A stretch of 64,000 bases of DNA from an uncultured Cytophagia bacterium (GTDB taxonomy: Bacteria; Zhuqueibacterota; Zhuqueibacteria; Residuimicrobiales; Krinioviventaceae). The DNA is taken from the NCBI GenBank assembly GCA_964399735.1, contig CAYNSO010000002.1, forward strand, positions 77,440 through 141,439. Reading direction: 5' to 3'. The notes below the pieces were generated by a model. That model worked only from the letters and a program-made list of their open reading frames with translations. It made no database searches and was not told the DNA's origin. A program made the position numbers and the translations under genes. Below, one piece after another: positions 3,098 to 64,000 of the stretch (the first letter of the stretch is position 1; each line of letters begins with the position of its first letter).

Positions 3098-4195
3098 TTA
3101 AAAGCCCAGTGTCAGGGAAAAACGCATGGTGTTAGACAGGGGGTGCCCCTCTGCTGCGTTTACATAACCAAAATCAAAACGATACATGTTGTATTGTATA
3201 CCGGCGCCAAAAGAAGTAAAGTTGACTTTGCCGGGTTCATCCCAATAATAACCGGCGCGCAAGGCAAAAAGATTGCTGTACCAGTATTCCACACCGCCGC
3301 TTAATATGCCGTTAAAAAGTTTCTTTTCGCCGGTAACTTTTTGATCGGCGCTGCCGATATTTTTAGTTTCTTTTTCCACAACAGTCCACGGCGAAGTAAA
3401 CAAAGCCTTGTACCATGAGTCTGAAGTGCCATCGGAGTATCTTTTAACCATGAGGTGGTTTAAATCGCCAACCAGGGTTAATTTATTATATTCATCTTCA
3501 ATAATTCTATAAGCAAAACCGATTTTGAGATTGGTCGGGATCGGGTCGGCCTGTGATGCGTCAATATAAGTAATTTTGGGGCCCAAATTGGAAAGATTGA
3601 CGCCAAGGCTTAATTTCTTTAAAAATGGAGTATGGTACAAGGCAGCCAGATCGAATGAAAACGCATTAGCCCGGCCATCGCCTTTTTCAGCGCCGGCGCC
3701 AATTGGCGACAAGTTGGAACGGATATAGCGTAAACCCAAACCAACCCCAAGATCTTCATTCAACTTGGTTCCAAAAGTACCGGAAATTGCAAATTCATTA
3801 CTGGTAAATTTATCAATTACTTCCGGGCCGGATTCCAATGTTACGCTTTGTTCGCCAAGATTTAAATAGGTAATATTGAAACCAACTGTACCAATACCTT
3901 CAAAAGATTGCCGGTACGCGCCAAATTCATAAAACAAGTCGGAACCAAATTGTGGCAGCCAGTTGGCATGCATTAGTGATATTTCCCGTCCCTGCTGAAA
4001 AGCCAAACCTGCAGGATTCCAGAAAACAGCAGTAGCATCATCGGCAAGAGCCACAAATGCTTCACCCATACCGGCAGCGCGGGCGCCGGGGGAAATCATT
4101 AAAAACAGCACGGCTGCCTCGCTTACTGCGTATACTTGTGCAAAAGAAAATAATAGCATAAATATACAAATTAAAGTAATAAACAGCTTTTTCAT
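3098..4195 (-). CDS. PorV/PorQ-family outer-membrane beta-barrel protein (type IX secretion associated)
   Basis: 365 aa with signal peptide and the signature SPGARAAGMGEAFVALADDATAVFWNPAGLA. Alternating beta-strand pattern ends in a C-terminal aromatic residue (TLGF). Stop lies next to a poly-A tract. Confidence 0.6.
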   Translation of the reverse strand: MKKLFITLICIFMLLFSFAQVYAVSEAAVLFLMISPGARAAGMGEAFVALADDATAVFWNPAGLAFQQGREISLMHANWLPQFGSDLFYEFGAYRQSFEGIGTVGFNITYLNLGEQSVTLESGPEVIDKFTSNEFAISGTFGTKLNEDLGVGLGLRYIRSNLSPIGAGAEKGDGRANAFSFDLAALYHTPFLKKLSLGVNLSNLGPKITYIDASQADPIPTNLKIGFAYRIIEDEYNKLTLVGDLNHLMVKRYSDGTSDSWYKALFTSPWTVVEKETKNIGSADQKVTGEKKLFNGILSGGVEYWYSNLFALRAGYYWDEPGKVNFTSFGAGIQYNMYRFDFGYVNAAEGHPLSNTMRFSLTLGF

Positions 4196-53976: not shown

Positions 53977-56900
53977 ATGCACATCAGAGTAAAACTTTAT
54001 TTGTGGATGCTTTTTATTGGTTCAACATCACTATTGGCCGGACAAGTTATGGTCGATCGAATTGAAATGATGCCGAACCAACCTTCCCCGTATCTCATGC
54101 GCAACTGGAAAGCCGTAACGCTTGGTTACGATTCTCTGGTGTTTGACTATGCCCGCACCGGCCAGTACTTGCCCCTGGTGTGGCGTAATACCAGTCCGGT
54201 AAATTATCCTGAACACAACAGTTTTGGTCTGCATACGGTAGTTGGTACCAGCGATCCGCACAATTCCGAAACGATCAATGTCCTGCCGGCGGTAATTGGT
54301 GCAACGCTAGTTGGAATAGACAAGAGCAATCATAACGGCGAAAACTGGGTATTAATGTGTGAAGAATACTTTAACCGCCGACCCGAAGAGAATATCTATC
54401 TAAATCAACCGGTAGCACAAAGTGGTGATGACTGGTGGTATACAACCATGCCGAATGTATTTTTTTATCAACTTTATGATTTGTATCCCGATGTTGGTGA
54501 TTTTGCCTGGCAATTTACCACCATAGCCGATCAATGGCTGGCAGCGGTTGAAAAGATGGGCGGCTCGCTCACTCCATGGAAAACACCCTATATGAACTAT
54601 CGCGGTTGGATATTTTCAACCATGAAACCTTATAGCAGCGGTGTAACGGAACCTGAAGCGGCAGGAGCAATTGCCTGGATGTTATATAATGCTTTTATTG
54701 AAACCGGTTATGAAAAATACCGTATCGGTGCGGAATGGGCGCTGGAATTTTTAAATAACTGGTCCGCAAACCCTGCATACGAATTGCAGCTACCTTTTGG
54801 CGTCTATGCGGCAGCGCGAATGAATGCCGAACTGGGTACCCGTTTTAATGTAGAAAAAATGGTGAACTGGTGTTTTGACAAAACCCTGCTGCGACACTGG
54901 GGCGCAATTGTCGGCACGTGGGGCGGCCTTGATGTCAGCGGTCTGATCGGTGAAATTTATGATAATGACTATGCATTTTTAATGAATGGTTTTGAACAGG
55001 CCGGCGCGCTTGTACCCATGGTTCGTTACGACGACCGCTTTGCCCGCGCGATTGGTAAATGGATGCTTAATCTCGCCAATGCCTCACGCCTGTTTTATCC
55101 CAATTATTTACCGGCAAACAAACAGGATAGTGAAGCGTGGTCGTATCAGTATGATCCGTTCTCATATATCGGTCACGAGGCGCTGCGTAAATCTCAATAC
55201 AACACCAGCCCATTCGCCACCGGGGACGCTATTACCGGCGGTTGGGGCGCAACCAATCTCGCCCTCTATGGATCTTCGCATGTGGGCATCCTCGGCGGTA
55301 TTGTGGATACGACCAATATTCCCATGATCTTGAAACTGGATGTCCGCAAAACCGATTATTTTAACAAAAATGCTTACCCGACTTTATTGTTTTATAATCC
55401 TTACGACGCTGAACAAATTGTACAATTGAATGTCGGCGCTGAATCTCATGATTTATATGATGCAGTAACCAATACATTTATTTCATTTGGCGTATCGGGA
55501 ATGACTGAAATTTCCCTGCCGGCAGACGAGGCTATACTGCTTGTACAATGCCCGGCTGCGGGAAACATTACCTATCGTTATAACCAGATGCTTGTTAATG
55601 GTATTGTTGCCGATTATAATAGCGAAATGTACTCAGGCAATTATCCGCCGCGCATTAAAGGCCTGGCGGCGCTTCCACAAATTACAAGTCTTGCTGAAAC
55701 CGTAACTCTGTACTGCGCGGCAGAAGACCCGGAAATGCAAGCCATTACATACGCCTGGTATGATAATTCTGGACAACTTATCGGACAAAACATGACGCAG
55801 CAATGGCTGGCCCCGAATGAACTCGGCGATTATATGTTGTTTTGCGTGGTCAGCGACGATAATGGCGGCGCCGATACCAGTTCAGTAGCACTTTCAGTTA
55901 TTGACAATCATTTCCCGGTAATTGAAACACTTTTTGCCAACCCGTCAATAATCAATCCGTTTGAAACTTCCACCCTCACCTGTCAGGCGCGGGATGAAGA
56001 TGGCGACAGTCTGGTCTTTACCTGGGAAGCAAGACAAGGGACAATTACCGGCAGCGGTAGTGTGGTCTCATGGACAGCTCCGGCAGACGAAGGCTATTAT
56101 AACGTAATCAGCCGGGTAACGGATGCCCGCGGTAGTTCAGATTGTGATAGTGTCGGCGTGGTCGTTGGCAATCTGGTTGGTTTTTATCAGTTACAAGGCA
56201 ATATGCACGATCACAGTGTTTTTGCCAATCACGGAACCACCGGTAATGTAACATATACTGCTGATCGCTTTGGAAATCCGGGCTCTGCCGGTTATTTTGA
56301 CGGCATTGATGATTTTATCCGCATTCCCGTACATCCAACACTGATCTTTCAAGAGGCAATTACCCTGAATTTTTGGATGCAAATTGACGGGGCTATCAGC
56401 GATGAAGCGTATATCCTGTCGCATGGCAGTTGGGAGAATCGCTGGAAAATATCTTTATTGAACGATGGCCGGCTGCGCTGGACGATTAAAACCAGCAATG
56501 GCGTAGTTGATGTGGATTCCAAAACCAAATTCACTGCCGATTCATTATATAATGTTTGTGTTAGTTATAATGGCGTTCAGGCAGCAATCTATATTAATGG
56601 AACTGCCAATGCCGCAGTAAACTGGACCGGCTTGATCACCTCAACCGGTTTTGACTTGACCATCGCCCAGCGTTTTCCAGGTGACAATCAATACAACTAT
56701 CCAGGTATTCTGGACGATATTCGCATCTACAATAAAGCGCTAAGCGCCATGGAAATAAAAGCGCTTTACGACATTCCCGTAACAATTCATAAAAACGGTA
56801 ATACTCAGATACCGGCATCCACACGGTTATTACCGGTATTTCCAAATCCATTTAATACCGGCACAATAATACAATACGAGTTAAAAGATCAGACACAAGT

Positions 56901-57093
56901 GACGATATATATATATAATTCATTGGGCCAAATTGTAACGACTCTGGTCGATGCAAAACAATCGCCCGGAACCGGAAAAATTTTATGGAATGGGTATGAC
57001 GATTCAGGAAGAACCGTTGCCAGCGGTATCTATTTTATTGTGCTGCAAACCGGCGATACGATGAATAAACAAAAAATTATTCTGCTGCGATGA
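53977..57093 (+). CDS. large secreted protein: N-terminal ~540-aa domain of unknown (possibly glycosidase-like) function, two Ig/PKD-like domains, LamG (concanavalin-like) domain, T9SS C-terminal sorting domain
   Basis: 1038 aa. Signal peptide. Two Ig/PKD-like domains. LamG-like block (FDGIDDFIRIP...LNFWMQIDG...WENRWKISLLNDGRLRW...LDDIRIYNKALSAMEIKALY). C-terminal T9SS sorting domain LPVFPNPFNTGTIIQYELKDQTQVTIYIYNSLGQIV...GIYFIVLQTGD. Confidence 0.8.
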   Translation: MHIRVKLYLWMLFIGSTSLLAGQVMVDRIEMMPNQPSPYLMRNWKAVTLGYDSLVFDYARTGQYLPLVWRNTSPVNYPEHNSFGLHTVVGTSDPHNSETINVLPAVIGATLVGIDKSNHNGENWVLMCEEYFNRRPEENIYLNQPVAQSGDDWWYTTMPNVFFYQLYDLYPDVGDFAWQFTTIADQWLAAVEKMGGSLTPWKTPYMNYRGWIFSTMKPYSSGVTEPEAAGAIAWMLYNAFIETGYEKYRIGAEWALEFLNNWSANPAYELQLPFGVYAAARMNAELGTRFNVEKMVNWCFDKTLLRHWGAIVGTWGGLDVSGLIGEIYDNDYAFLMNGFEQAGALVPMVRYDDRFARAIGKWMLNLANASRLFYPNYLPANKQDSEAWSYQYDPFSYIGHEALRKSQYNTSPFATGDAITGGWGATNLALYGSSHVGILGGIVDTTNIPMILKLDVRKTDYFNKNAYPTLLFYNPYDAEQIVQLNVGAESHDLYDAVTNTFISFGVSGMTEISLPADEAILLVQCPAAGNITYRYNQMLVNGIVADYNSEMYSGNYPPRIKGLAALPQITSLAETVTLYCAAEDPEMQAITYAWYDNSGQLIGQNMTQQWLAPNELGDYMLFCVVSDDNGGADTSSVALSVIDNHFPVIETLFANPSIINPFETSTLTCQARDEDGDSLVFTWEARQGTITGSGSVVSWTAPADEGYYNVISRVTDARGSSDCDSVGVVVGNLVGFYQLQGNMHDHSVFANHGTTGNVTYTADRFGNPGSAGYFDGIDDFIRIPVHPTLIFQEAITLNFWMQIDGAISDEAYILSHGSWENRWKISLLNDGRLRWTIKTSNGVVDVDSKTKFTADSLYNVCVSYNGVQAAIYINGTANAAVNWTGLITSTGFDLTIAQRFPGDNQYNYPGILDDIRIYNKALSAMEIKALYDIPVTIHKNGNTQIPASTRLLPVFPNPFNTGTIIQYELKDQTQVTIYIYNSLGQIVTTLVDAKQSPGTGKILWNGYDDSGRTVASGIYFIVLQTGDTMNKQKIILLR

Positions 57094-57161: not shown

Positions 57162-59693
57162 ATGCAGATGACAGAAATGATAATACCGGATAATGGAAAA
57201 TTTCAGAGTTTTATACCTGGACAGGGAGTGGCTCAACAAGTATTTATGCCGGAATACAAGGACGATTCATGGCTTCCTATTCAGATTCCCGGCGATATTC
57301 ATATAGCGCTGTACAAAGCCCAGGTAATTCCTGATCCGTTTTACGATCAAAATGAAAATCAATTACAGTGGATCGAAGAAAAAGAATGGTGGTATCGTCT
57401 GCACTTTAAAGCAGATAGCAATAAAAGTCAAAAAGATGAACGTATTATGCTCATCTGCCGCGGACTCGACACCTTTGCCACTTTGTGGCTGAATGGCAAA
57501 AAAATCGGAACAACAAAAAACATGTTCCATGATTACCAGTTTGACATTAGTAGAAATATTCAGTCTGGAGAAACAAATGTTCTGGCAATCTGTTTTGATC
57601 CACCTCAAGCGCACAGCATTCCCAATCTGCCCTTTCAGCCCTGGGGCATTAATTCGGAACGCATCTCCTACCGCAAAGCGCAATTCAGTTTTGGTTGGGA
57701 CTGGGCGCCGCGCTTTCCAACCATCGGCGTTTACCGCCCGATTGAAATAGCAAGGCAAAAAAAAGCGGTTCTTGCCGGTATCCATTTTACAACCGATAAA
57801 TTATATCCTGAAAATAAAACAGCAGTTTTATCGCTCTCGATCGATATTGATAATTTTACCAGAAATAATGACATTCACATTCGTTATCAATTGCAGAATG
57901 CAGATGGCCAAACGGTCAAAGAAGAACGGCTTCAACTTGTTGGGCAAATGAAAAAAATGAAACAGCAAGTTACTTTTATGCTGTCGGATGCCAGTCTATG
58001 GTGGATCCATGAACTGGGTGAGCCGTATCTGTATCAACTAAAAGTTGAATTATTCTCCGGCAAAACACTCCTTGATTCAAATTCAATAGCTGTTGGTATT
58101 CGCTCGATTGAACTGGATCAATCCGTTGATGCGCGAGAGCCCGGCTGTCGTTTTTTCCGCTTTATTCTGAATGGAGCGCCCATATTTGCCAAAGGCGCCA
58201 ACTGGATTCCTGCGGATTCTTTTCCAGGCCGCTTGACAAAAAAAGATTATGAAAAGCTGATAATTGCCGCGCAACACGGCAACATGAACATGCTGCGGGT
58301 ATGGGGCGGCGGATTATATGAACATGATGATTTTTATGACCTGTGTGACCAAATGGGTATTCTGGTGTGGCAAGATTTCATGTTCTCCTGTGCCACATAC
58401 CCGGAAGCGCCCCTGGCTTTTGAGCAAGAAGTGCAAACCGAAGCCGAATACCAGGTGCAGCGGCTGCGTAACCATGCTTCATTGGCTCTATGGTGCGGTA
58501 ATAACGAAAACCAGTGGATACATGATAAAACCTATTGGGATCAACCAAATTATCAGGTACCGGGCAGCCTCTATTACAACACAATCTTGCCGCAAGCAGT
58601 GCAGGAACTTGACGGACATACCCCCTATTGGCCGGGTAGTCCTTATGGCGGTAACGATCATAACAGTATGAACGACGGCGATCGTCACAACTGGATGGTG
58701 TGGCATGGTGACCCGCCGCGCCTGTTCGGCGAAAAACCACAGGTCGATCAATCTCCAAACGGAGTATCGTATTATAATTACGCGCACGATACAGGCCGAT
58801 TTATCAGCGAATTCGGTATGCATGCCTCACCGGTTTTGGCAACCTTGCAGCGTTGTATGCCGCCCGAACAATTATATTTCCACAGTCCGGCGATGGATCA
58901 TCATAACAAGGATAATCCCAAAAACAAAGGCGATAATCTAATGCTTACCGTTACCGGCCTGCCGGATAACCTGCAGGACTATATTGATTACAGTATGATA
59001 ACCCAGGGGGAAGGGCTTAAATTTGCGATTGAACATTACCGTCGGCGCAAGCCGCATTGTTCAGGAACCCTGTTCTGGCAATTAAATGATTGCTGGCCGG
59101 CGCTAAGCTGGAGCGTTATTGATTATTACGGCTATAAAAAAGCAGGGTATTATTATGCCAAAAGAGCATTTTCACCAATTCTCGCGTCTTTCCGGCAGAC
59201 GGATAACGAAAGTGTACAATTATGGTTTACCAATGATCTGTTACAGGAAATAACTGATACGGTAATCATTCGCCATGCAGATTTTTCCGGTAATATTGTC
59301 TGGGAAAAAACCCTCGGCATACGCATTTCCCCAAACAGCAGCCGGATATTTATGAAAATGGATAAAGACTCACTTCAGGCCGATGCGATGCACTACCTGG
59401 TCGTATCCTCTGCTAACCAAAAATTTCCCAAAAACCGCTTTTTCTTTACTGCTATCAAAGATCTGCAGCGTAAACCCGGCCCAATAAGTACAACCATACA
59501 ACAAGAGAATGATCAGGTATATATCAATTGCAAGGCAAAGGATTATGCTTTTTTTGTTCATATAGCAATAACTACCCCGGAGTATGATTTAACTGATAAT
59601 TATTTCGATCTGGAAGCCGGTGAAGAACGAACCCTGGTCGTTACAGGTTTCCAATCAATCGAGGTAAGTGAAATACAAATAACCGGATTATAA
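57162..59693 (+). CDS. glycoside hydrolase family 2 beta-mannosidase
   Basis: 843 aa. GH2 sugar-binding, Ig-like and TIM-barrel domains. RGLDTFATLWLNGKKIG, NMLRVWGGGLYEHDDFYDLCDQMGILVWQDFMF, and the acid/base region LWCGNNENQW are typical of BmnA/ManB-type beta-mannosidases. Confidence 0.85.
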   Translation: MQMTEMIIPDNGKFQSFIPGQGVAQQVFMPEYKDDSWLPIQIPGDIHIALYKAQVIPDPFYDQNENQLQWIEEKEWWYRLHFKADSNKSQKDERIMLICRGLDTFATLWLNGKKIGTTKNMFHDYQFDISRNIQSGETNVLAICFDPPQAHSIPNLPFQPWGINSERISYRKAQFSFGWDWAPRFPTIGVYRPIEIARQKKAVLAGIHFTTDKLYPENKTAVLSLSIDIDNFTRNNDIHIRYQLQNADGQTVKEERLQLVGQMKKMKQQVTFMLSDASLWWIHELGEPYLYQLKVELFSGKTLLDSNSIAVGIRSIELDQSVDAREPGCRFFRFILNGAPIFAKGANWIPADSFPGRLTKKDYEKLIIAAQHGNMNMLRVWGGGLYEHDDFYDLCDQMGILVWQDFMFSCATYPEAPLAFEQEVQTEAEYQVQRLRNHASLALWCGNNENQWIHDKTYWDQPNYQVPGSLYYNTILPQAVQELDGHTPYWPGSPYGGNDHNSMNDGDRHNWMVWHGDPPRLFGEKPQVDQSPNGVSYYNYAHDTGRFISEFGMHASPVLATLQRCMPPEQLYFHSPAMDHHNKDNPKNKGDNLMLTVTGLPDNLQDYIDYSMITQGEGLKFAIEHYRRRKPHCSGTLFWQLNDCWPALSWSVIDYYGYKKAGYYYAKRAFSPILASFRQTDNESVQLWFTNDLLQEITDTVIIRHADFSGNIVWEKTLGIRISPNSSRIFMKMDKDSLQADAMHYLVVSSANQKFPKNRFFFTAIKDLQRKPGPISTTIQQENDQVYINCKAKDYAFFVHIAITTPEYDLTDNYFDLEAGEERTLVVTGFQSIEVSEIQITGL

Positions 59694-59894: not shown

Positions 59895-59908
59895 AAAAAC
59901 GTTTCGAT
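59895..59908. promoter_or_regulatory. second copy of operator core (AAAAACGTTTCGAT) overlapping the regulator start codon
   Basis: Direct repeat of the 59830-59843 core. Ends in the ATG at 59907-59909 of the LacI-family gene. Confidence 0.45.
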
Positions 59909-60926
59909 GAAGACTACCATAAAAGAAGTCGCAAAAAAAGCCGGGGTGGCTGTTTCCACAGTATCTTTGGTGCTTAACAACAAAGGTTATGTTAGCCAGG
60001 AAGTTAAAACCAAAGTTCTGGACGCAATTAAAGAACTGAAATATCATCCACAGCGGACAGCGCGCGGACTGGTTACCCGGCAAAGCGGCAATTTCGGCTT
60101 TATCGTCACAACCGATCACTTTTCCCATGTTGAACCCTTTTACACCAAAATTTTCCTTGGTTGCGAATTTTCTGCCCGCTCTTATGACTATTACATCCTC
60201 CTCACGACCATTGATATGAATTTTTCTCCCCAAAATATTCCACGCTTTTTACTGGAACGTAATGTTGATGGAGTTATCCTGGCCGGTTCAGTCCCCCATA
60301 AAATTGTTGATTATATCAAAGAAAAAAAATACCCGCAAATTTTAATTGATTATTACTTTGCCGATCAAAACCAGTCACGGGTTATCATTGATAATGATAT
60401 GGGGATTCGGCTGATCATTGAGCATTTACGCGAAATGGGGCATAAATGCATTGCCTTTATCGGCGGCGACATGAAACATCCCGGTATGCTGGAACGCAAA
60501 AATGCATTTATAAAATATTGCCGGGCTTTTGGACTGGCATTGGATGAGAAATACCTGATTTCCGAACATCGGGACAGTAATTCAGCTGCCGGCTTTGAAG
60601 CGACCAATCAATTACTGGAACGCAACCAGGACTTGACTGCAATTGTTGCCGCCAACGATGCGATGGCAGTCGGCGCTTTACGGGCATGCCGTGACCGAAA
60701 AATTAACATTCCGGGACAAATGGCAATTACCGGTTTTGATAATGTTGAATCATCAATTACAGCCAGGCCTACCCTAACAACTGTTAATGTACCCAAAGAA
60801 GAAATGGGGGCAACAGCTGTGCGATATCTGGTTGATGTTGTAAAAAATCATTCCCAGGAGGGCGTTAAAATTATTATGCCGGTCAAGCTGGTATGTCGTG
60901 AATCGACAAATAATAAATTTGCCTGA
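59907..60926 (+). CDS. LacI-family transcriptional regulator
   Basis: 339 aa. N-terminal HTH TIKEVAKKAGVAVSTVSLVLNNKGYVSQEVKTKV, and a periplasmic-binding-protein-like sugar-binding core. Confidence 0.9.
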   Translation: MKTTIKEVAKKAGVAVSTVSLVLNNKGYVSQEVKTKVLDAIKELKYHPQRTARGLVTRQSGNFGFIVTTDHFSHVEPFYTKIFLGCEFSARSYDYYILLTTIDMNFSPQNIPRFLLERNVDGVILAGSVPHKIVDYIKEKKYPQILIDYYFADQNQSRVIIDNDMGIRLIIEHLREMGHKCIAFIGGDMKHPGMLERKNAFIKYCRAFGLALDEKYLISEHRDSNSAAGFEATNQLLERNQDLTAIVAANDAMAVGALRACRDRKINIPGQMAITGFDNVESSITARPTLTTVNVPKEEMGATAVRYLVDVVKNHSQEGVKIIMPVKLVCRESTNNKFA

Positions 60927-61114
60927 TTGTGCAAAAACAGGTAAAAATGAATATGATATTTAACTAAAATAAACTGATAATAATCATAAAAAAATGACAA
61001 GAAAGGAGGTACCGGGCAGTAATCTATTTTTTGGGACCTCACTATCAAAAGCCAATGCAGAGAATCTGTCTCTGCATTACAGGTAAAACAGAAACTAAAA
61101 AACAAGAGGTGATT

Positions 61115-64000
61115 ATGAAATTTTTAAAACAAACATTCCTCTGTACCGCTGTAATTGTCAGTTTCCTCGTCTTCTCCCCTGCCCTGGCACAAATCAATAC
61201 CATAGAAAACGGCGGGTTCGAGAACGTTGATAATCCGGCATACTGGTACAAGCTCGATGCCGACGGTGCAACTGTCGAATGGGCTGAAGATCAATTTCGT
61301 TCTCCGGAACGCTCACTGAAAATTTCCGATGCCGATGGACCGGATGCACCTTCCTGGAAATCCGAAAATTTTGCGACTTTGCAATGGAACCCAACCACAG
61401 GATTAACAAAAAATATCGAAATGCTGGTAGGCGGCTGGGTAAAAACCCAAAATGTGAATGTTTCCCCGGCAAACGACAATGATAAAATCACACTCTCCTT
61501 TACCTTTAAAGATGCTGCTGGCGCCACAATTTTTGGCCAACCGGTTATTATGGAAATTCCACAAAACCAGGCCAGCACAGATTGGGTAGAAATCAAAAAT
61601 GATGTTCCAATTGTACTGCCGGAAGATGCTGCCGAATGCTATGTAGAATTTAAATTTGGCGCTAATGCTACCGGTACCGCGTGGCTGGACGATATTTTCC
61701 TGTACAATGCCCCCGGCGCTGAAGGCTGGATTGGCGGGCTTTTTAATGCCAATTTTGGCGTGCCGGCCGGCTGGTTTTTCTGGAAAGATTATATGGATAC
61801 CGGCGCACCAGGATATGGTATTGTTTCAATTTCTAAAAATTATGCCCATAAAGGCGCCCATTCGTTACGGATCAGCGATACTGCCGACAATCCTGCAGAA
61901 GTTGTGGCTATATCAAACAGAAACGCGGTTGATCCCGGTCGGTCTTATGGTTTTTCCGCCTGGGTCAAACTGGAAGACGCAAATGTCAATCCGACTCGTG
62001 ATGTTGAACAAGCTGTATTCTTTACCATTACCTATCACAATGACGATGCCGGCTGGGCGGAAATTGGCGGCGAAGATTTCTTTGTCATCGATCAATCCCT
62101 GTCCGATACCGATTGGCGGTTATACGAGTTTACCTTTACACCGCCTGAAGGAACAACCCGCATATCAATACGCCCGCGTATGCAACACCAGGCAATTGGC
62201 GACACCTACTGGGACGATATTCGCATTTACCCGGTCGGTATTGCAAAAAAGAATTTCAGCTTTGATGAATCGCTCAACCCCGCTAATTGGTCCGCCCGTA
62301 ATGGTGGCGAAGCTGATGTGGAATGGGACGGCGATGTGTATCGTTCCCCGGAACGCTCGTTAAAGATCAGTGATGCCGGCGGCGATGATGATCCCTACTG
62401 GATCAGCGCCAATATGGCAAAACTGCAATGGAATTCAACAAACGGTATCACTGCTAATGTGGAAATGGTTATTGGCGGCTGGGTAAAAACCGAAAATGTC
62501 AATACCAATCCGGCTACTGCCAATGATGAAATTTATCTTTCCTATTCATTTTATGATGCAACAGGAAATATGATCTTTGGTCAACCTGTAGTTATGAAAA
62601 TTCCGCAAGCCAATGCTTCAACCGACTGGGTTGAAATTAAAAATGAAACCCCGGTTGTTTTGCCGGTAGATGCAGACTCGATGATTGTCATGTTTTATTT
62701 TGGCCCGAACGCCACCGGTACGGTATGGCTGGATGATATATTTATGAAAAATGCTCCCGGCGCCGAAGGCTGGCTGGGTGATTTGTATAACGGTAACTTT
62801 GGAGTACCGGAAGGCTGGTTCTTCTGGAAAGATAAAATGAGTGAAGGCGAAGCCGATTATGGCGTGGTTTCGATTTCCGATACCTACGCGCATAGTGGTA
62901 AAAACTCTCTCAGAATGTCGGACGATGCTACCAATCCCGCCGAAGTCGTGCTTATTTCCGACCGCAACCCGGTTGAACCGAACATGGAATACCTGGTGAG
63001 CGTGTGGGTAAAACTGGTTGGTACAAATTTAAACATTGAAAAAGATATTGAAAAAGCGGTTTTCTTTACCGTTACCTACCACTCTAATGACGCCGGCTGG
63101 GCGGAAAATCATGGCGCTGATTTTCTGGTCGTTCCGCAAACAGTAACCGACCGCGATTGGGCTTTGTATACCTTCCGTATTAAAACCGAAGCGAACGACC
63201 ATCGTATCTCCATTCGCGGCAGAATGCAGCACCAGGCCACCGGCGATGTGTACCTCGATGATTTCCAGGTTGTGCCAATTGCCAGCCCAATGGCTAATTA
63301 TGACTTTGAAAATGCTGAATTGCCAGCGCACTGGACCAAACGTAATGAAGGCGAATCGACCCTTAGCTGGACTTCGGCTGTGAGTCGTTCACCACAACGT
63401 AGTTTAATGATCCAGGAAAGCGATGGTAACGATGCTCCGATGTGGACCACCCATGCCAACATGGCAAAATTGTACTGGAATCCAACCACAGGCATTACCC
63501 CCAATATCGAAATGGAAATTGGCGGCTGGGTAAAAACCGAAAATGTCAATACCAATCCGGCAAATGCAGATGAAGAAATTCAACTTGTATATGAATTCTT
63601 TGATGCAACAGGAGCATTAATATTCGGCCAACCGGTTGTACTGAATGTTCCCCAAACTCAGGCAACAATCGACTGGACCCAGATTAAAAATGATGTTCCC
63701 ATTGTATTGCCGGTTGACGCTGATTCTTTGGCAATTACATTCAAATTCGGTCCGCAAGCCACCGGCACTGTCTGGCTGGATGACATTATGATGTGTAATG
63801 CTCCCGGCGCTGAAGGCTGGTTAGGTGGAATATTTAACGGTAATTTTGGTGTACCGGAAGGATGGTTCTTCTGGAAAGATAAAATGGACAACGGCGAAGC
63901 CGGTTATGGCGTAGTGTCGGTTACCGAGGACGAAGCACATACCGGTAATTTCTCTTTGCTGATTTCCGACGATGATACCAATCCCGCCGAAGTCGTTGCA
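61115..64000 (+). CDS. very large secreted protein built of tandem repeats of paired carbohydrate-binding-module-like (CBM4/9/22-like) domains; partial, continues beyond window end
   Basis: ATG at 61115 preceded by AAGAGGTGA. Signal peptide MKFLKQTFLCTAVIVSFLVFSPALAQ. The frame is open to 64000 (>960 aa) and absent from the ORF track because it has no stop in the window. A repeat unit of ~350 aa occurs at least 3 times. Domain A: NGGFEN..WYK...W..DQFRSPERSLKISDADG...LQWNPTTG.T.NIEM.IGGWVKTENVN...WLDDIF. Domain B: FGVPEGWFFWKD...GYGVVSIS...SLR.SD...NPAEVV.IS.RN...Y..S.WVKL...VFFT.TYH..DAGWAE..G.DF.V...WD..YLDD. Confidence 0.75.
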   Translation, partial: MKFLKQTFLCTAVIVSFLVFSPALAQINTIENGGFENVDNPAYWYKLDADGATVEWAEDQFRSPERSLKISDADGPDAPSWKSENFATLQWNPTTGLTKNIEMLVGGWVKTQNVNVSPANDNDKITLSFTFKDAAGATIFGQPVIMEIPQNQASTDWVEIKNDVPIVLPEDAAECYVEFKFGANATGTAWLDDIFLYNAPGAEGWIGGLFNANFGVPAGWFFWKDYMDTGAPGYGIVSISKNYAHKGAHSLRISDTADNPAEVVAISNRNAVDPGRSYGFSAWVKLEDANVNPTRDVEQAVFFTITYHNDDAGWAEIGGEDFFVIDQSLSDTDWRLYEFTFTPPEGTTRISIRPRMQHQAIGDTYWDDIRIYPVGIAKKNFSFDESLNPANWSARNGGEADVEWDGDVYRSPERSLKISDAGGDDDPYWISANMAKLQWNSTNGITANVEMVIGGWVKTENVNTNPATANDEIYLSYSFYDATGNMIFGQPVVMKIPQANASTDWVEIKNETPVVLPVDADSMIVMFYFGPNATGTVWLDDIFMKNAPGAEGWLGDLYNGNFGVPEGWFFWKDKMSEGEADYGVVSISDTYAHSGKNSLRMSDDATNPAEVVLISDRNPVEPNMEYLVSVWVKLVGTNLNIEKDIEKAVFFTVTYHSNDAGWAENHGADFLVVPQTVTDRDWALYTFRIKTEANDHRISIRGRMQHQATGDVYLDDFQVVPIASPMANYDFENAELPAHWTKRNEGESTLSWTSAVSRSPQRSLMIQESDGNDAPMWTTHANMAKLYWNPTTGITPNIEMEIGGWVKTENVNTNPANADEEIQLVYEFFDATGALIFGQPVVLNVPQTQATIDWTQIKNDVPIVLPVDADSLAITFKFGPQATGTVWLDDIMMCNAPGAEGWLGGIFNGNFGVPEGWFFWKDKMDNGEAGYGVVSVTEDEAHTGNFSLLISDDDTNPAEVVA
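61180..64000 (+). repeat. intragenic tandem repeat, period ~1.05 kb (3 or more copies, 60-75% nt identity with short perfectly identical blocks)
   Basis: A 44-nt stretch ATTGGCGGCTGGGTAAAAACCGAAAATGTCAATACCAATCCGGC is identical at 62471-62514 and 63518-63561. The homologous segment in copy 1 is near 61431. Confidence 0.7.

Follow-up and report, generated by a model that had tools for sequence, protein, structure and literature searches.

A predicted surface protein with three pairs of carbohydrate-binding-type modules and its conserved LacI-linked cassette in several little-studied bacterial phyla

The 64,000-nucleotide stretch of DNA analyzed here (contig CAYNSO010000002.1 of assembly GCA_964399735.1, from an uncultured bacterium; hereinafter, the window) ends within a long gene on the + strand (61115..64000). 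Judging from its orthologues, the open reading frame (ORF) in the window is the first 82% of a gene for a cell-surface protein of about 1,175 residues with three pairs of carbohydrate-binding module (CBM)-type domains, denoted A and B, in the arrangement (A-B)x3; the gene is truncated by the window end and accordingly has no stop codon. The product probably is a non-catalytic surface binding protein that consists of a signal peptide, three A-B didomains and a type IX secretion system (T9SS) C-terminal domain (CTD), and captures glycans multivalently for the TonB-dependent receptor encoded in the same gene cassette. From its gene content, this cassette of four genes is predicted to be a conserved outer-membrane nutrient-uptake system that is present in several little-studied phyla (KSB1, Kryptonia, Marinimicrobia and Calditrichota).

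Frame, secretion signals and modules of the surface protein

Translation of the window from 61115 to 64000 on the + strand (frame 1) yields 962 codons with zero stops. A preliminary description of this DNA, made from the letters alone, had noted the unbroken frame and had attributed its absence from a program-made ORF list to the frame running past the window end; the translation bears out both points. The protein encoded in the window contains three units of about 349 amino acids each (residues 27-374, 375-723 and 724-962). Units 1 and 2 are complete and the third is represented by 238 of its 349 residues (68%), so that the 'three near-full copies' of the preliminary description hold for two of the three and are slightly generous for the last one. 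The units are 59, 59 and 63% identical to each other at the amino acid level and 61.7, 62.3 and 69.8% identical at the nucleotide level, in agreement with the earlier estimate of about 60-75% for the nucleotides.

A search of 5.8 billion proteins identifies 26 full-length relatives that are 60-72% identical to the window protein and are 1,162-1,182 amino acids long, the named ones among them coming from metagenome-assembled genomes (MAGs) of candidate division KSB1. As defined by motif positions and alignment, all 26 orthologues share the same plan, in which the signal peptide is followed by three A-B units, no more and no fewer, and by a C-terminal domain of about 105 residues; in the wider family, the number of A-B units per protein varies from one to three. 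Given the uniform length and unit number of the orthologues, the window gene appears to be short of only about 215 amino acids and to be of ordinary size. The gene has a GC content of 47% (46% at third codon positions, GC3), compared to 56-61% (GC3 68-82%) in the orthologues from nine loci (L001-L009), which suggests that the source organism is related to the KSB1 bacteria sampled but differs from them in base composition.

The N-terminus of the protein, MKFLKQTFLCTAVIVSFLVFSPALA followed by Q, shows, on inspection, the features of a Sec signal peptide (amino acids 1-25, 61115..61189, + strand), i.e., basic residues, a predicted hydrophobic helix (amino acids 2-24) and an ALA/Q cleavage site, in accord with the secretion proposed in the preliminary description. 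The cleavage region, SPALA/QIN (orthologue consensus ...AQINTI), contains no cysteine at +1 and thus lacks a lipobox. The residue that follows the predicted cleavage site, Gln26 (61190-61192), is invariant in all 30 aligned homologues. This conservation resembles the 'Q-rule' of secreted proteins of Bacteroidetes, in which cleavage by signal peptidase I is followed by the formation of an N-terminal pyroglutamate; in the present case, it is KSB1 and related phyla that have glutamine directly behind the predicted cleavage site.

The T9SS CTD that the preliminary description had expected beyond the window is found in the orthologues. The C-terminal domain of orthologue P0001 scores 31.4 bits against TIGR04183, the T9SS type-A sorting domain (cutoff 23), PF18962/PF13860 is detected in many orthologues, and the CTD consensus is retained in the alignment. 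The window encodes a second T9SS cargo (53977-57093; TIGR04183, 40.4 bits) and, separately, a PorV-family protein (3098-4195, - strand; PF19572, 110 bits), and therefore, the organism has T9SS components. This PorV protein is only 28% identical to the PorV-like protein of the orthologous cassettes; in view of this low identity, a housekeeping PorV and cassette-specific paralogues probably coexist.

The three A modules are 171 residues long each (A1, 61193..61705; A2, 62237..62749; A3, 63284..63796; here and below, + strand). The B modules comprise 177 (B1, 61706..62236) and 178 residues (B2, 62750..63283), with B3 being cut by the window end after its first 68 residues (63797..64000), which match positions 1-68 of the B hidden Markov model (HMM). 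B1 and B2 are members of Pfam family CBM_4_9 (PF02018), with scores of 48.0 and 42.3 bits, respectively, against the gathering threshold of 25.9 bits, and the score rises to 83.6 bits (E 2e-23) for the fragment as a whole; a search of NCBIfam with the window fragment yields no meaningful match. The B profile shows weak similarity to the solved CBM4 and CBM22 modules (E 8e-5 to 0.5). The HMMs of A and B detect each other, and hhalign aligns them over 153 columns with the probability of 99% (E 3e-18); hence the two modules are diverged paralogues of one fold. By the HMM criterion, module A is outside CBM_4_9, of which it is a divergent relative. The AlphaFold2 model of A2 (predicted local distance difference test score, pLDDT, of 90) is a beta-jelly roll for which Foldseek identifies CBM22, CBM16, CBM11 and CBM4 domains (E 1e-6 to 5e-4). 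The view of the units of about 350 amino acids as pairs of CBM4/9/16/22-type beta-sandwich domains, advanced in the preliminary description, is therefore right, considering that B belongs to CBM_4_9 and A is homologous to B and CBM-like in fold.

The AlphaFold2 model of the whole fragment includes confidently modeled modules, with an overall predicted template-modeling score (pTM) of 0.46. Low confidence is confined to the signal-peptide end and to the unit boundaries (375-386 and 726-728) whereas the A-B junctions are confident. This distribution suggests that the three A-B didomains are fairly rigid and that the hinges between them are flexible. The whole-fragment model matches the CBM22 tandem and CBM16 (TM-score of 0.65-0.68 on target), the reelin repeats, the CBM-like domains of Cry protoxins and a surface protein of Bacteroides, SGBP-B. 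An exhaustive search of 1.84 billion representative sequences with the module A profile identifies 405 proteins at E<=1e-3, 55 of these at E<=1e-30, so the module A family appears to be small. Contigs of Thermoplasmatota and other archaeal MAGs contain a single stretch about 27% identical to module A (L011:4435-4953, L012:3530-4048 and L013:3060-3578; E 1e-8 to 7e-9 in tblastn, within the candidate set). Judging by this similarity, module A may occur also outside bacteria.

A four-gene cassette shared by several phyla

Wherever a KSB1 locus reaches far enough, the gene in question, which is the first structural gene of the cassette, is followed by those for a TonB-dependent receptor, a protein of about 1,060 amino acids, and a PorV/PorQ-family barrel. 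The receptor is a protein of about 900 amino acids with CarboxypepD_reg, Plug and barrel domains, and the barrel protein (about 345 amino acids) scores 227 bits against NF033709 (cutoff 90). A LacI-family regulator gene directly precedes the (A-B)n gene in every KSB1 locus that extends upstream of it (the L004 and L010 contigs do not), and in 3 KSB1 loci, a beta-mannosidase of glycoside hydrolase (GH) family 2 is encoded upstream as well. The same gene order is conserved around distant family members in Kryptonia, in Marinimicrobia, where the cassette carries a GH5 gene, and in one further lineage, with LacI encoded nearby.

As an independent test, three remote loci were looked up starting from the family of the ~1,060-amino-acid protein. 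In all three, this protein is encoded between the receptor and the PorV-like gene, and an (A-B)n protein is encoded upstream of the receptor (n=1, 491 amino acids; n=2, 759 amino acids; and one partial sequence). These cassettes continue with sugar ABC (ATP-binding cassette) importers and enzymes that are GH130, rhamnosidase-like or MGH1-like. Across the cassettes, the accessory enzymes include GH2, GH5, GH130, rhamnosidase-like and GH94-like ones, accompanied by LacI and sugar ABC importers; a regulator is thus co-located with carbohydrate-active enzymes, as in the polysaccharide utilization loci (PULs) of Bacteroidota. The sugar-utilization context perceived in the preliminary description is real and is stronger than the window shows. 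The receptor from L003 is not a member of the SusC/RagA family: it scores 58.7 bits against TIGR04056 (cutoff 368), with the match limited to model positions 2-121. No SusD family was called in any locus examined, the gene after the receptor being that of the ~1,060-amino-acid protein.

The latter protein is 1,050-1,100 amino acids long and 50-76% identical across phyla (L003:16365-19538; L018:15522-18710; L019:15362-18664; L020:16608-19856; L021:3892-7113; L022:9001-12258; L023:9001-12225). Its family has more than 2,800 matches, which come from KSB1, Calditrichota and Ignavibacteriales and without exception bear the label 'hypothetical'. Searches against Pfam and NCBIfam, and a search of PDB with a sequence profile of the protein, produce no match (in Pfam, noise only at E<=1). 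The protein contains Asp-rich, DxDxDG-like motifs and has a C-terminus that resembles the T9SS CTD (VVPNPY...GVYIY...), with only a marginal match to CHU_C.

The neighbors of the (A-B)3 gene in the window, on the + strand, are those named in the preliminary description, all of them correctly, i.e., the LacI-family regulator (59907-60926), the GH2 beta-mannosidase (57162-59693; E 2e-154 to 5n6u and 1e-129 to BtMan2A), which has no CTD, and the T9SS cargo with a LamG domain (53977-57093). This cargo is a protein of 1,038 amino acids that combines PKD and LamG domains and the CTD with a Pfam-silent N-terminal region of about 560 amino acids. A 1,059-amino-acid protein with the same domain make-up is encoded just upstream of LacI in Kryptonia (L018:3425-6604). 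From this recurrence, the PKD/LamG cargo may be a further accessory of the cassette.

The 5' leader of the (A-B)3 gene contains a Shine-Dalgarno-like motif, GAAAGGAGGTA (RARAGGAGGTR; 61001..61011, + strand), 114 nucleotides upstream of the start codon, which has a Shine-Dalgarno sequence of its own. The motif occurs once in the 64-kb window, both strands considered, and is retained at -87 to -166 in 7 orthologous loci (L001, L002, L003, L005, L006, L007 and L008). There is no conserved small ORF after the motif and no Rfam match in the leader; no palindrome that could represent a LacI-type operator is common to the window and the orthologous intergenic regions, and a sigma-70 scan yields weak consensus matches only.

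The 44-nucleotide block and the history of the units

The preliminary description reported two identical blocks of 44 nucleotides, one in A2 (62471..62514, + strand) and the other in A3 (63518..63561, + strand), and these are indeed identical and maximal at this length, with an offset of 1047 nucleotides, or 349 codons. No other exact repeat in the region is as long (the next ones measure 24 and 21 nucleotides), and the encoded peptide, IGGWVKTENVNTNPA, is the best conserved of all 15-residue windows of the A module in the phyla sampled. The block was taken to imply either recent gene conversion or selection on this segment. By itself, it implies neither. Selection on its nucleotides is ruled out by the orthologues, which encode the residues at the IGGWVKTENVNTNPA position with other synonymous codons, and a permutation test among same-residue degenerate codons yields p=0.03 for the stretch of identical codons shared by units 2 and 3, so that the block alone is only marginally unusual. 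A broader signal of conversion, stronger than that of the block, is nevertheless present in these two units, which have 63% of their synonymous codons in common, against the 45% expected from the codon usage of the gene and the 44-46% in pairs 1/2 and 1/3. The excess is patchy, with values of 0.90 around the block, 0.75-0.80 near the A-B junction and 0.35-0.40 elsewhere, a distribution that is consistent with short gene-conversion tracts.

All 78 units of the 26 orthologues have a nearest neighbor with the same position index, and hence the triplication appears to be older than the divergence of these species. Wholesale concerted evolution of the units is ruled out by the same result, i.e., the units group by position, not by genome. 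Within a protein, the units are 4-5 percentage points more alike than units of different index from different proteins; only patchy local exchange between units is supported.

Orthologue L001 contains identical runs of 56-71 nucleotides in all three units at the A-B linker (MRTAPGAEGWIGDLYNANFG; p 0.002-0.013), located at aligned codons ~165-190. One linker residue is lineage-specific and is common to all three units of a protein, with the window protein having N, L001 having T, and L005-L009 having V or L. The pattern in the linker indicates local concerted evolution of this segment.

Two alternative views of the gene itself were considered. An exact look-up of the LacI protein retrieved four short-read (Logan) contigs, from four Sequence Read Archive (SRA) runs (L014-L017), that carry the identical LacI gene and all end at 62500; an exact 60-nucleotide query with the last bases of the window found no match in the metagenome collection. 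Position 62500 is exactly 30 nucleotides into the 44-nucleotide block, i.e., k-1 for k=31, and as the four assemblies break inside the block, the block is present also in independent data. Breaks of short-read assemblies precisely at this point could mean that the repeat structure is an artefact produced by a mis-join at the 44-nucleotide repeat, or else that the gene is a broken one, a pseudogene. Such an interpretation is almost certainly wrong: the frame is intact over 962 codons, the sequence that precedes the block corresponds, in each of units 1-3, to the proper orthologous unit, unit 3 continues to resemble unit 3 of the orthologues past the block, the pairing of units by position index is without exception, and the upstream sequence is recovered in the four independent runs, two of which differ from it at 0-5 positions. 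Because the flanks keep the correct unit orthology, a mis-join at the block is unsupported. The other alternative is the preliminary description's own, namely, a giant, open-ended secreted protein with many units that would extend far past the window. The frame is still open at 64000, as this view requires, but the full-length relatives, at 60-72% identity, all have three units and end about 215 amino acids beyond the point where the window stops, and family members elsewhere carry one to three units, so that a giant protein is very improbable. In practical terms, the lesson is that this is a gene of ordinary size and that an exact intragenic repeat of 44 nucleotides suffices to fragment k=31 assemblies.

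Glycan capture and its alternatives

The most economical reading of these observations is that the (A-B)n-CTD protein is a functional analogue of the surface glycan-binding proteins (SGBPs) of Bacteroidota, such as SusE/SusF and SGBP-B (7kwb from B. thetaiotaomicron), within a PUL-like system that lacks SusD. Like the SGBPs, it is a non-catalytic surface protein that consists of multiple beta-sandwich modules, has a TonB-dependent transporter, a sugar regulator and glycosidases encoded beside it, and would be expected to engage in multivalent capture; SGBP-B itself is among the fold matches. CHU_1279 of Cytophaga hutchinsonii is an SGBP-type example for comparison (PMC12016534). There are also differences from this system. 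The SGBPs are lipoproteins encoded beside SusC and SusD, whereas the protein described here has a signal of the signal-peptidase-I type without a lipobox cysteine and, in the orthologues, a T9SS CTD; the receptor of its cassette is below the SusC/RagA cutoff, and no SusD-like gene accompanies it. Furthermore, SGBPs are found in Bacteroidota, as opposed to KSB1, Kryptonia, Marinimicrobia and Calditrichota in the present case. The second obvious comparison is with the tandem CBM22, CBM4 and CBM16 modules of glycoside hydrolases (Xyn10C CBM22-1-CBM22-2, 4xup; Man5A CBM16, 2zex; laminarinase 16A CBM4-2, 1gui), with which the units share the beta-jelly-roll fold, the tandem layout and, for B, the CBM_4_9 family. 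In contrast to those enzymes, there is no catalytic domain here, the six modules strictly alternate between two subtypes, the similarity is low (identity 12-19%, TM-score 0.5-0.68), and module A is outside every Pfam model.

Under this scenario, the six modules would bind a polysaccharide or oligosaccharide in a multivalent manner at the cell surface and pass it on to the adjacent TonB-dependent receptor. Degradation would be completed by periplasmic or cytoplasmic enzymes, the GH2 beta-mannosidase in this organism and GH5, GH130, GH94-like or rhamnosidase-like enzymes elsewhere, together with sugar ABC importers, and the LacI repressor would sense a degradation product. The beta-mannosidase hints that the ligand in this organism is possibly a glycan containing beta-mannosides, but this is a guess. 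The PorV-family barrel of the cassette plausibly could keep the CTD-bearing protein or proteins beside the transporter, by analogy with the idea, established in the T9SS field, that PorV-like barrels hold cognate CTD cargo (PorZ-PorQ, SprB-SprF; PMC10202324). With these type-A cargo systems, the cassette shares the CTD, as seen in the orthologues, and a barrel gene in an operon-like arrangement; however, the pairing of cargo and barrel in the present case is suggested by gene order only. We know of no example of such a PorV-type barrel coupled to a TonB-dependent receptor cassette.

Several observations weigh against the role in glycan capture. Binding of glycans by members of the family is inferred, as are the ligand, the tethering by the barrel and the hand-over to the receptor, in contrast to the architecture, the fold class, the CTD of the orthologues, the gene order and the history of the units, which are shown; both the CTD and the unit count of the window gene are taken from the orthologues, considering that the window stops short of the C-terminus and the 3' end of the gene was not recovered. 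In the comparison of the separate modules with Pfam, B passes the CBM_4_9 threshold but A1, A2 and A3 give no match, CBM_4_9 included, even at E<=10. The similarity of the A2 fold to the CBMs is low (TM-score 0.5-0.6, identity 12-19%), and comparable matches are obtained with lectin-like domains of phage tailspikes and with gingipain adhesin domains, which have other ligands. Finally, the (A-B) protein stays constant while the enzymes of the cassette differ, so a generic structural role is conceivable. Of the surface glycan-capture protein put forward in the preliminary description, the sugar context and the CBM-type architecture are upheld, and the capture itself is a probable function.

The constancy of the didomain protein against a background of varying enzymes makes its role as a structural or docking subunit the main rival. 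Such a subunit would hold together the receptor, the ~1,060-amino-acid protein and the barrel, or act as a lid, with substrate recognition vested in the ~1,060-amino-acid protein or the receptor. In keeping with this, each of the cassettes examined combines (A-B)n with the other three genes even as the enzymes change, and the best-conserved motifs, GGWVKTENVNTNPA and ATGTVWLDD, persist in different phyla, contrary to what one would expect of a ligand that tracked the enzymes. We nonetheless find a purely structural role rather improbable because the variation of the didomain copy number from one to three fits avidity better than a complex of fixed stoichiometry, the flexible hinges predicted between the units suggest a reaching, tethered array, and B is a genuine member of CBM_4_9. 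It is unlikely that the protein is an adhesin or of the surface-layer type, with no part in nutrient uptake, mediating, for instance, attachment to particles or other cells and using a PorV/SprF-like anchor in the manner of the Flavobacterium gliding adhesins. Module A does resemble in fold the gingipain K1/K3 adhesin domains and the lectin domains of phage receptor-binding proteins, and PorP/SprF-type barrels are known partners of adhesins (PMC10202324), but the linkage to LacI, the TonB-dependent receptor, sugar ABC importers and glycosidases or phosphorylases is tight and universal, and the cassettes contain no motility genes.

Glycan capture for the receptor is thus the interpretation that we prefer, and it allows a tentative extension, which we consider possible but doubtful. 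The (A-B)n-CTD protein, the receptor, the ~1,060-amino-acid protein and the PorV barrel might form one physical outer-membrane machine for SusD-independent glycan import in the bacteria of the Fibrobacteres-Chlorobi-Bacteroidetes (FCB) group other than Bacteroidota, in which the barrel would dock the binding proteins delivered by the T9SS, and the ~1,060-amino-acid protein would load the substrate in the manner of SusD.

Surface proteins with multiple CBMs and T9SS cargo proteins are already known kinds, and some of the orthologues are labelled 'carbohydrate binding domain-containing protein' by NCBI. What appears to be undescribed is, first and foremost, the four-gene cassette that several phyla of the FCB group share, and also the CBM-like A module that is invisible to Pfam and the strict alternation of A and B in (A-B)n. 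No description of the cassette or the family was found in the full-text literature, including the KSB1 and Caldithrix genome papers, a body of text that was incompletely covered, so that novelty is unproven. Sediments, hot springs and the ocean interior harbor abundant KSB1, Calditrichota, Marinimicrobia, Kryptonia and Ignavibacteria-type bacteria, which are thought to be degraders of polymers; to our knowledge, the SusC/SusD pairs that account for the uptake of glycans by Bacteroidota are missing from them. If the proposed function is correct, the cassette would define two unannotated families, the A module and the ~1,060-amino-acid partner, and would provide a concrete, testable model of polysaccharide capture in these phyla.

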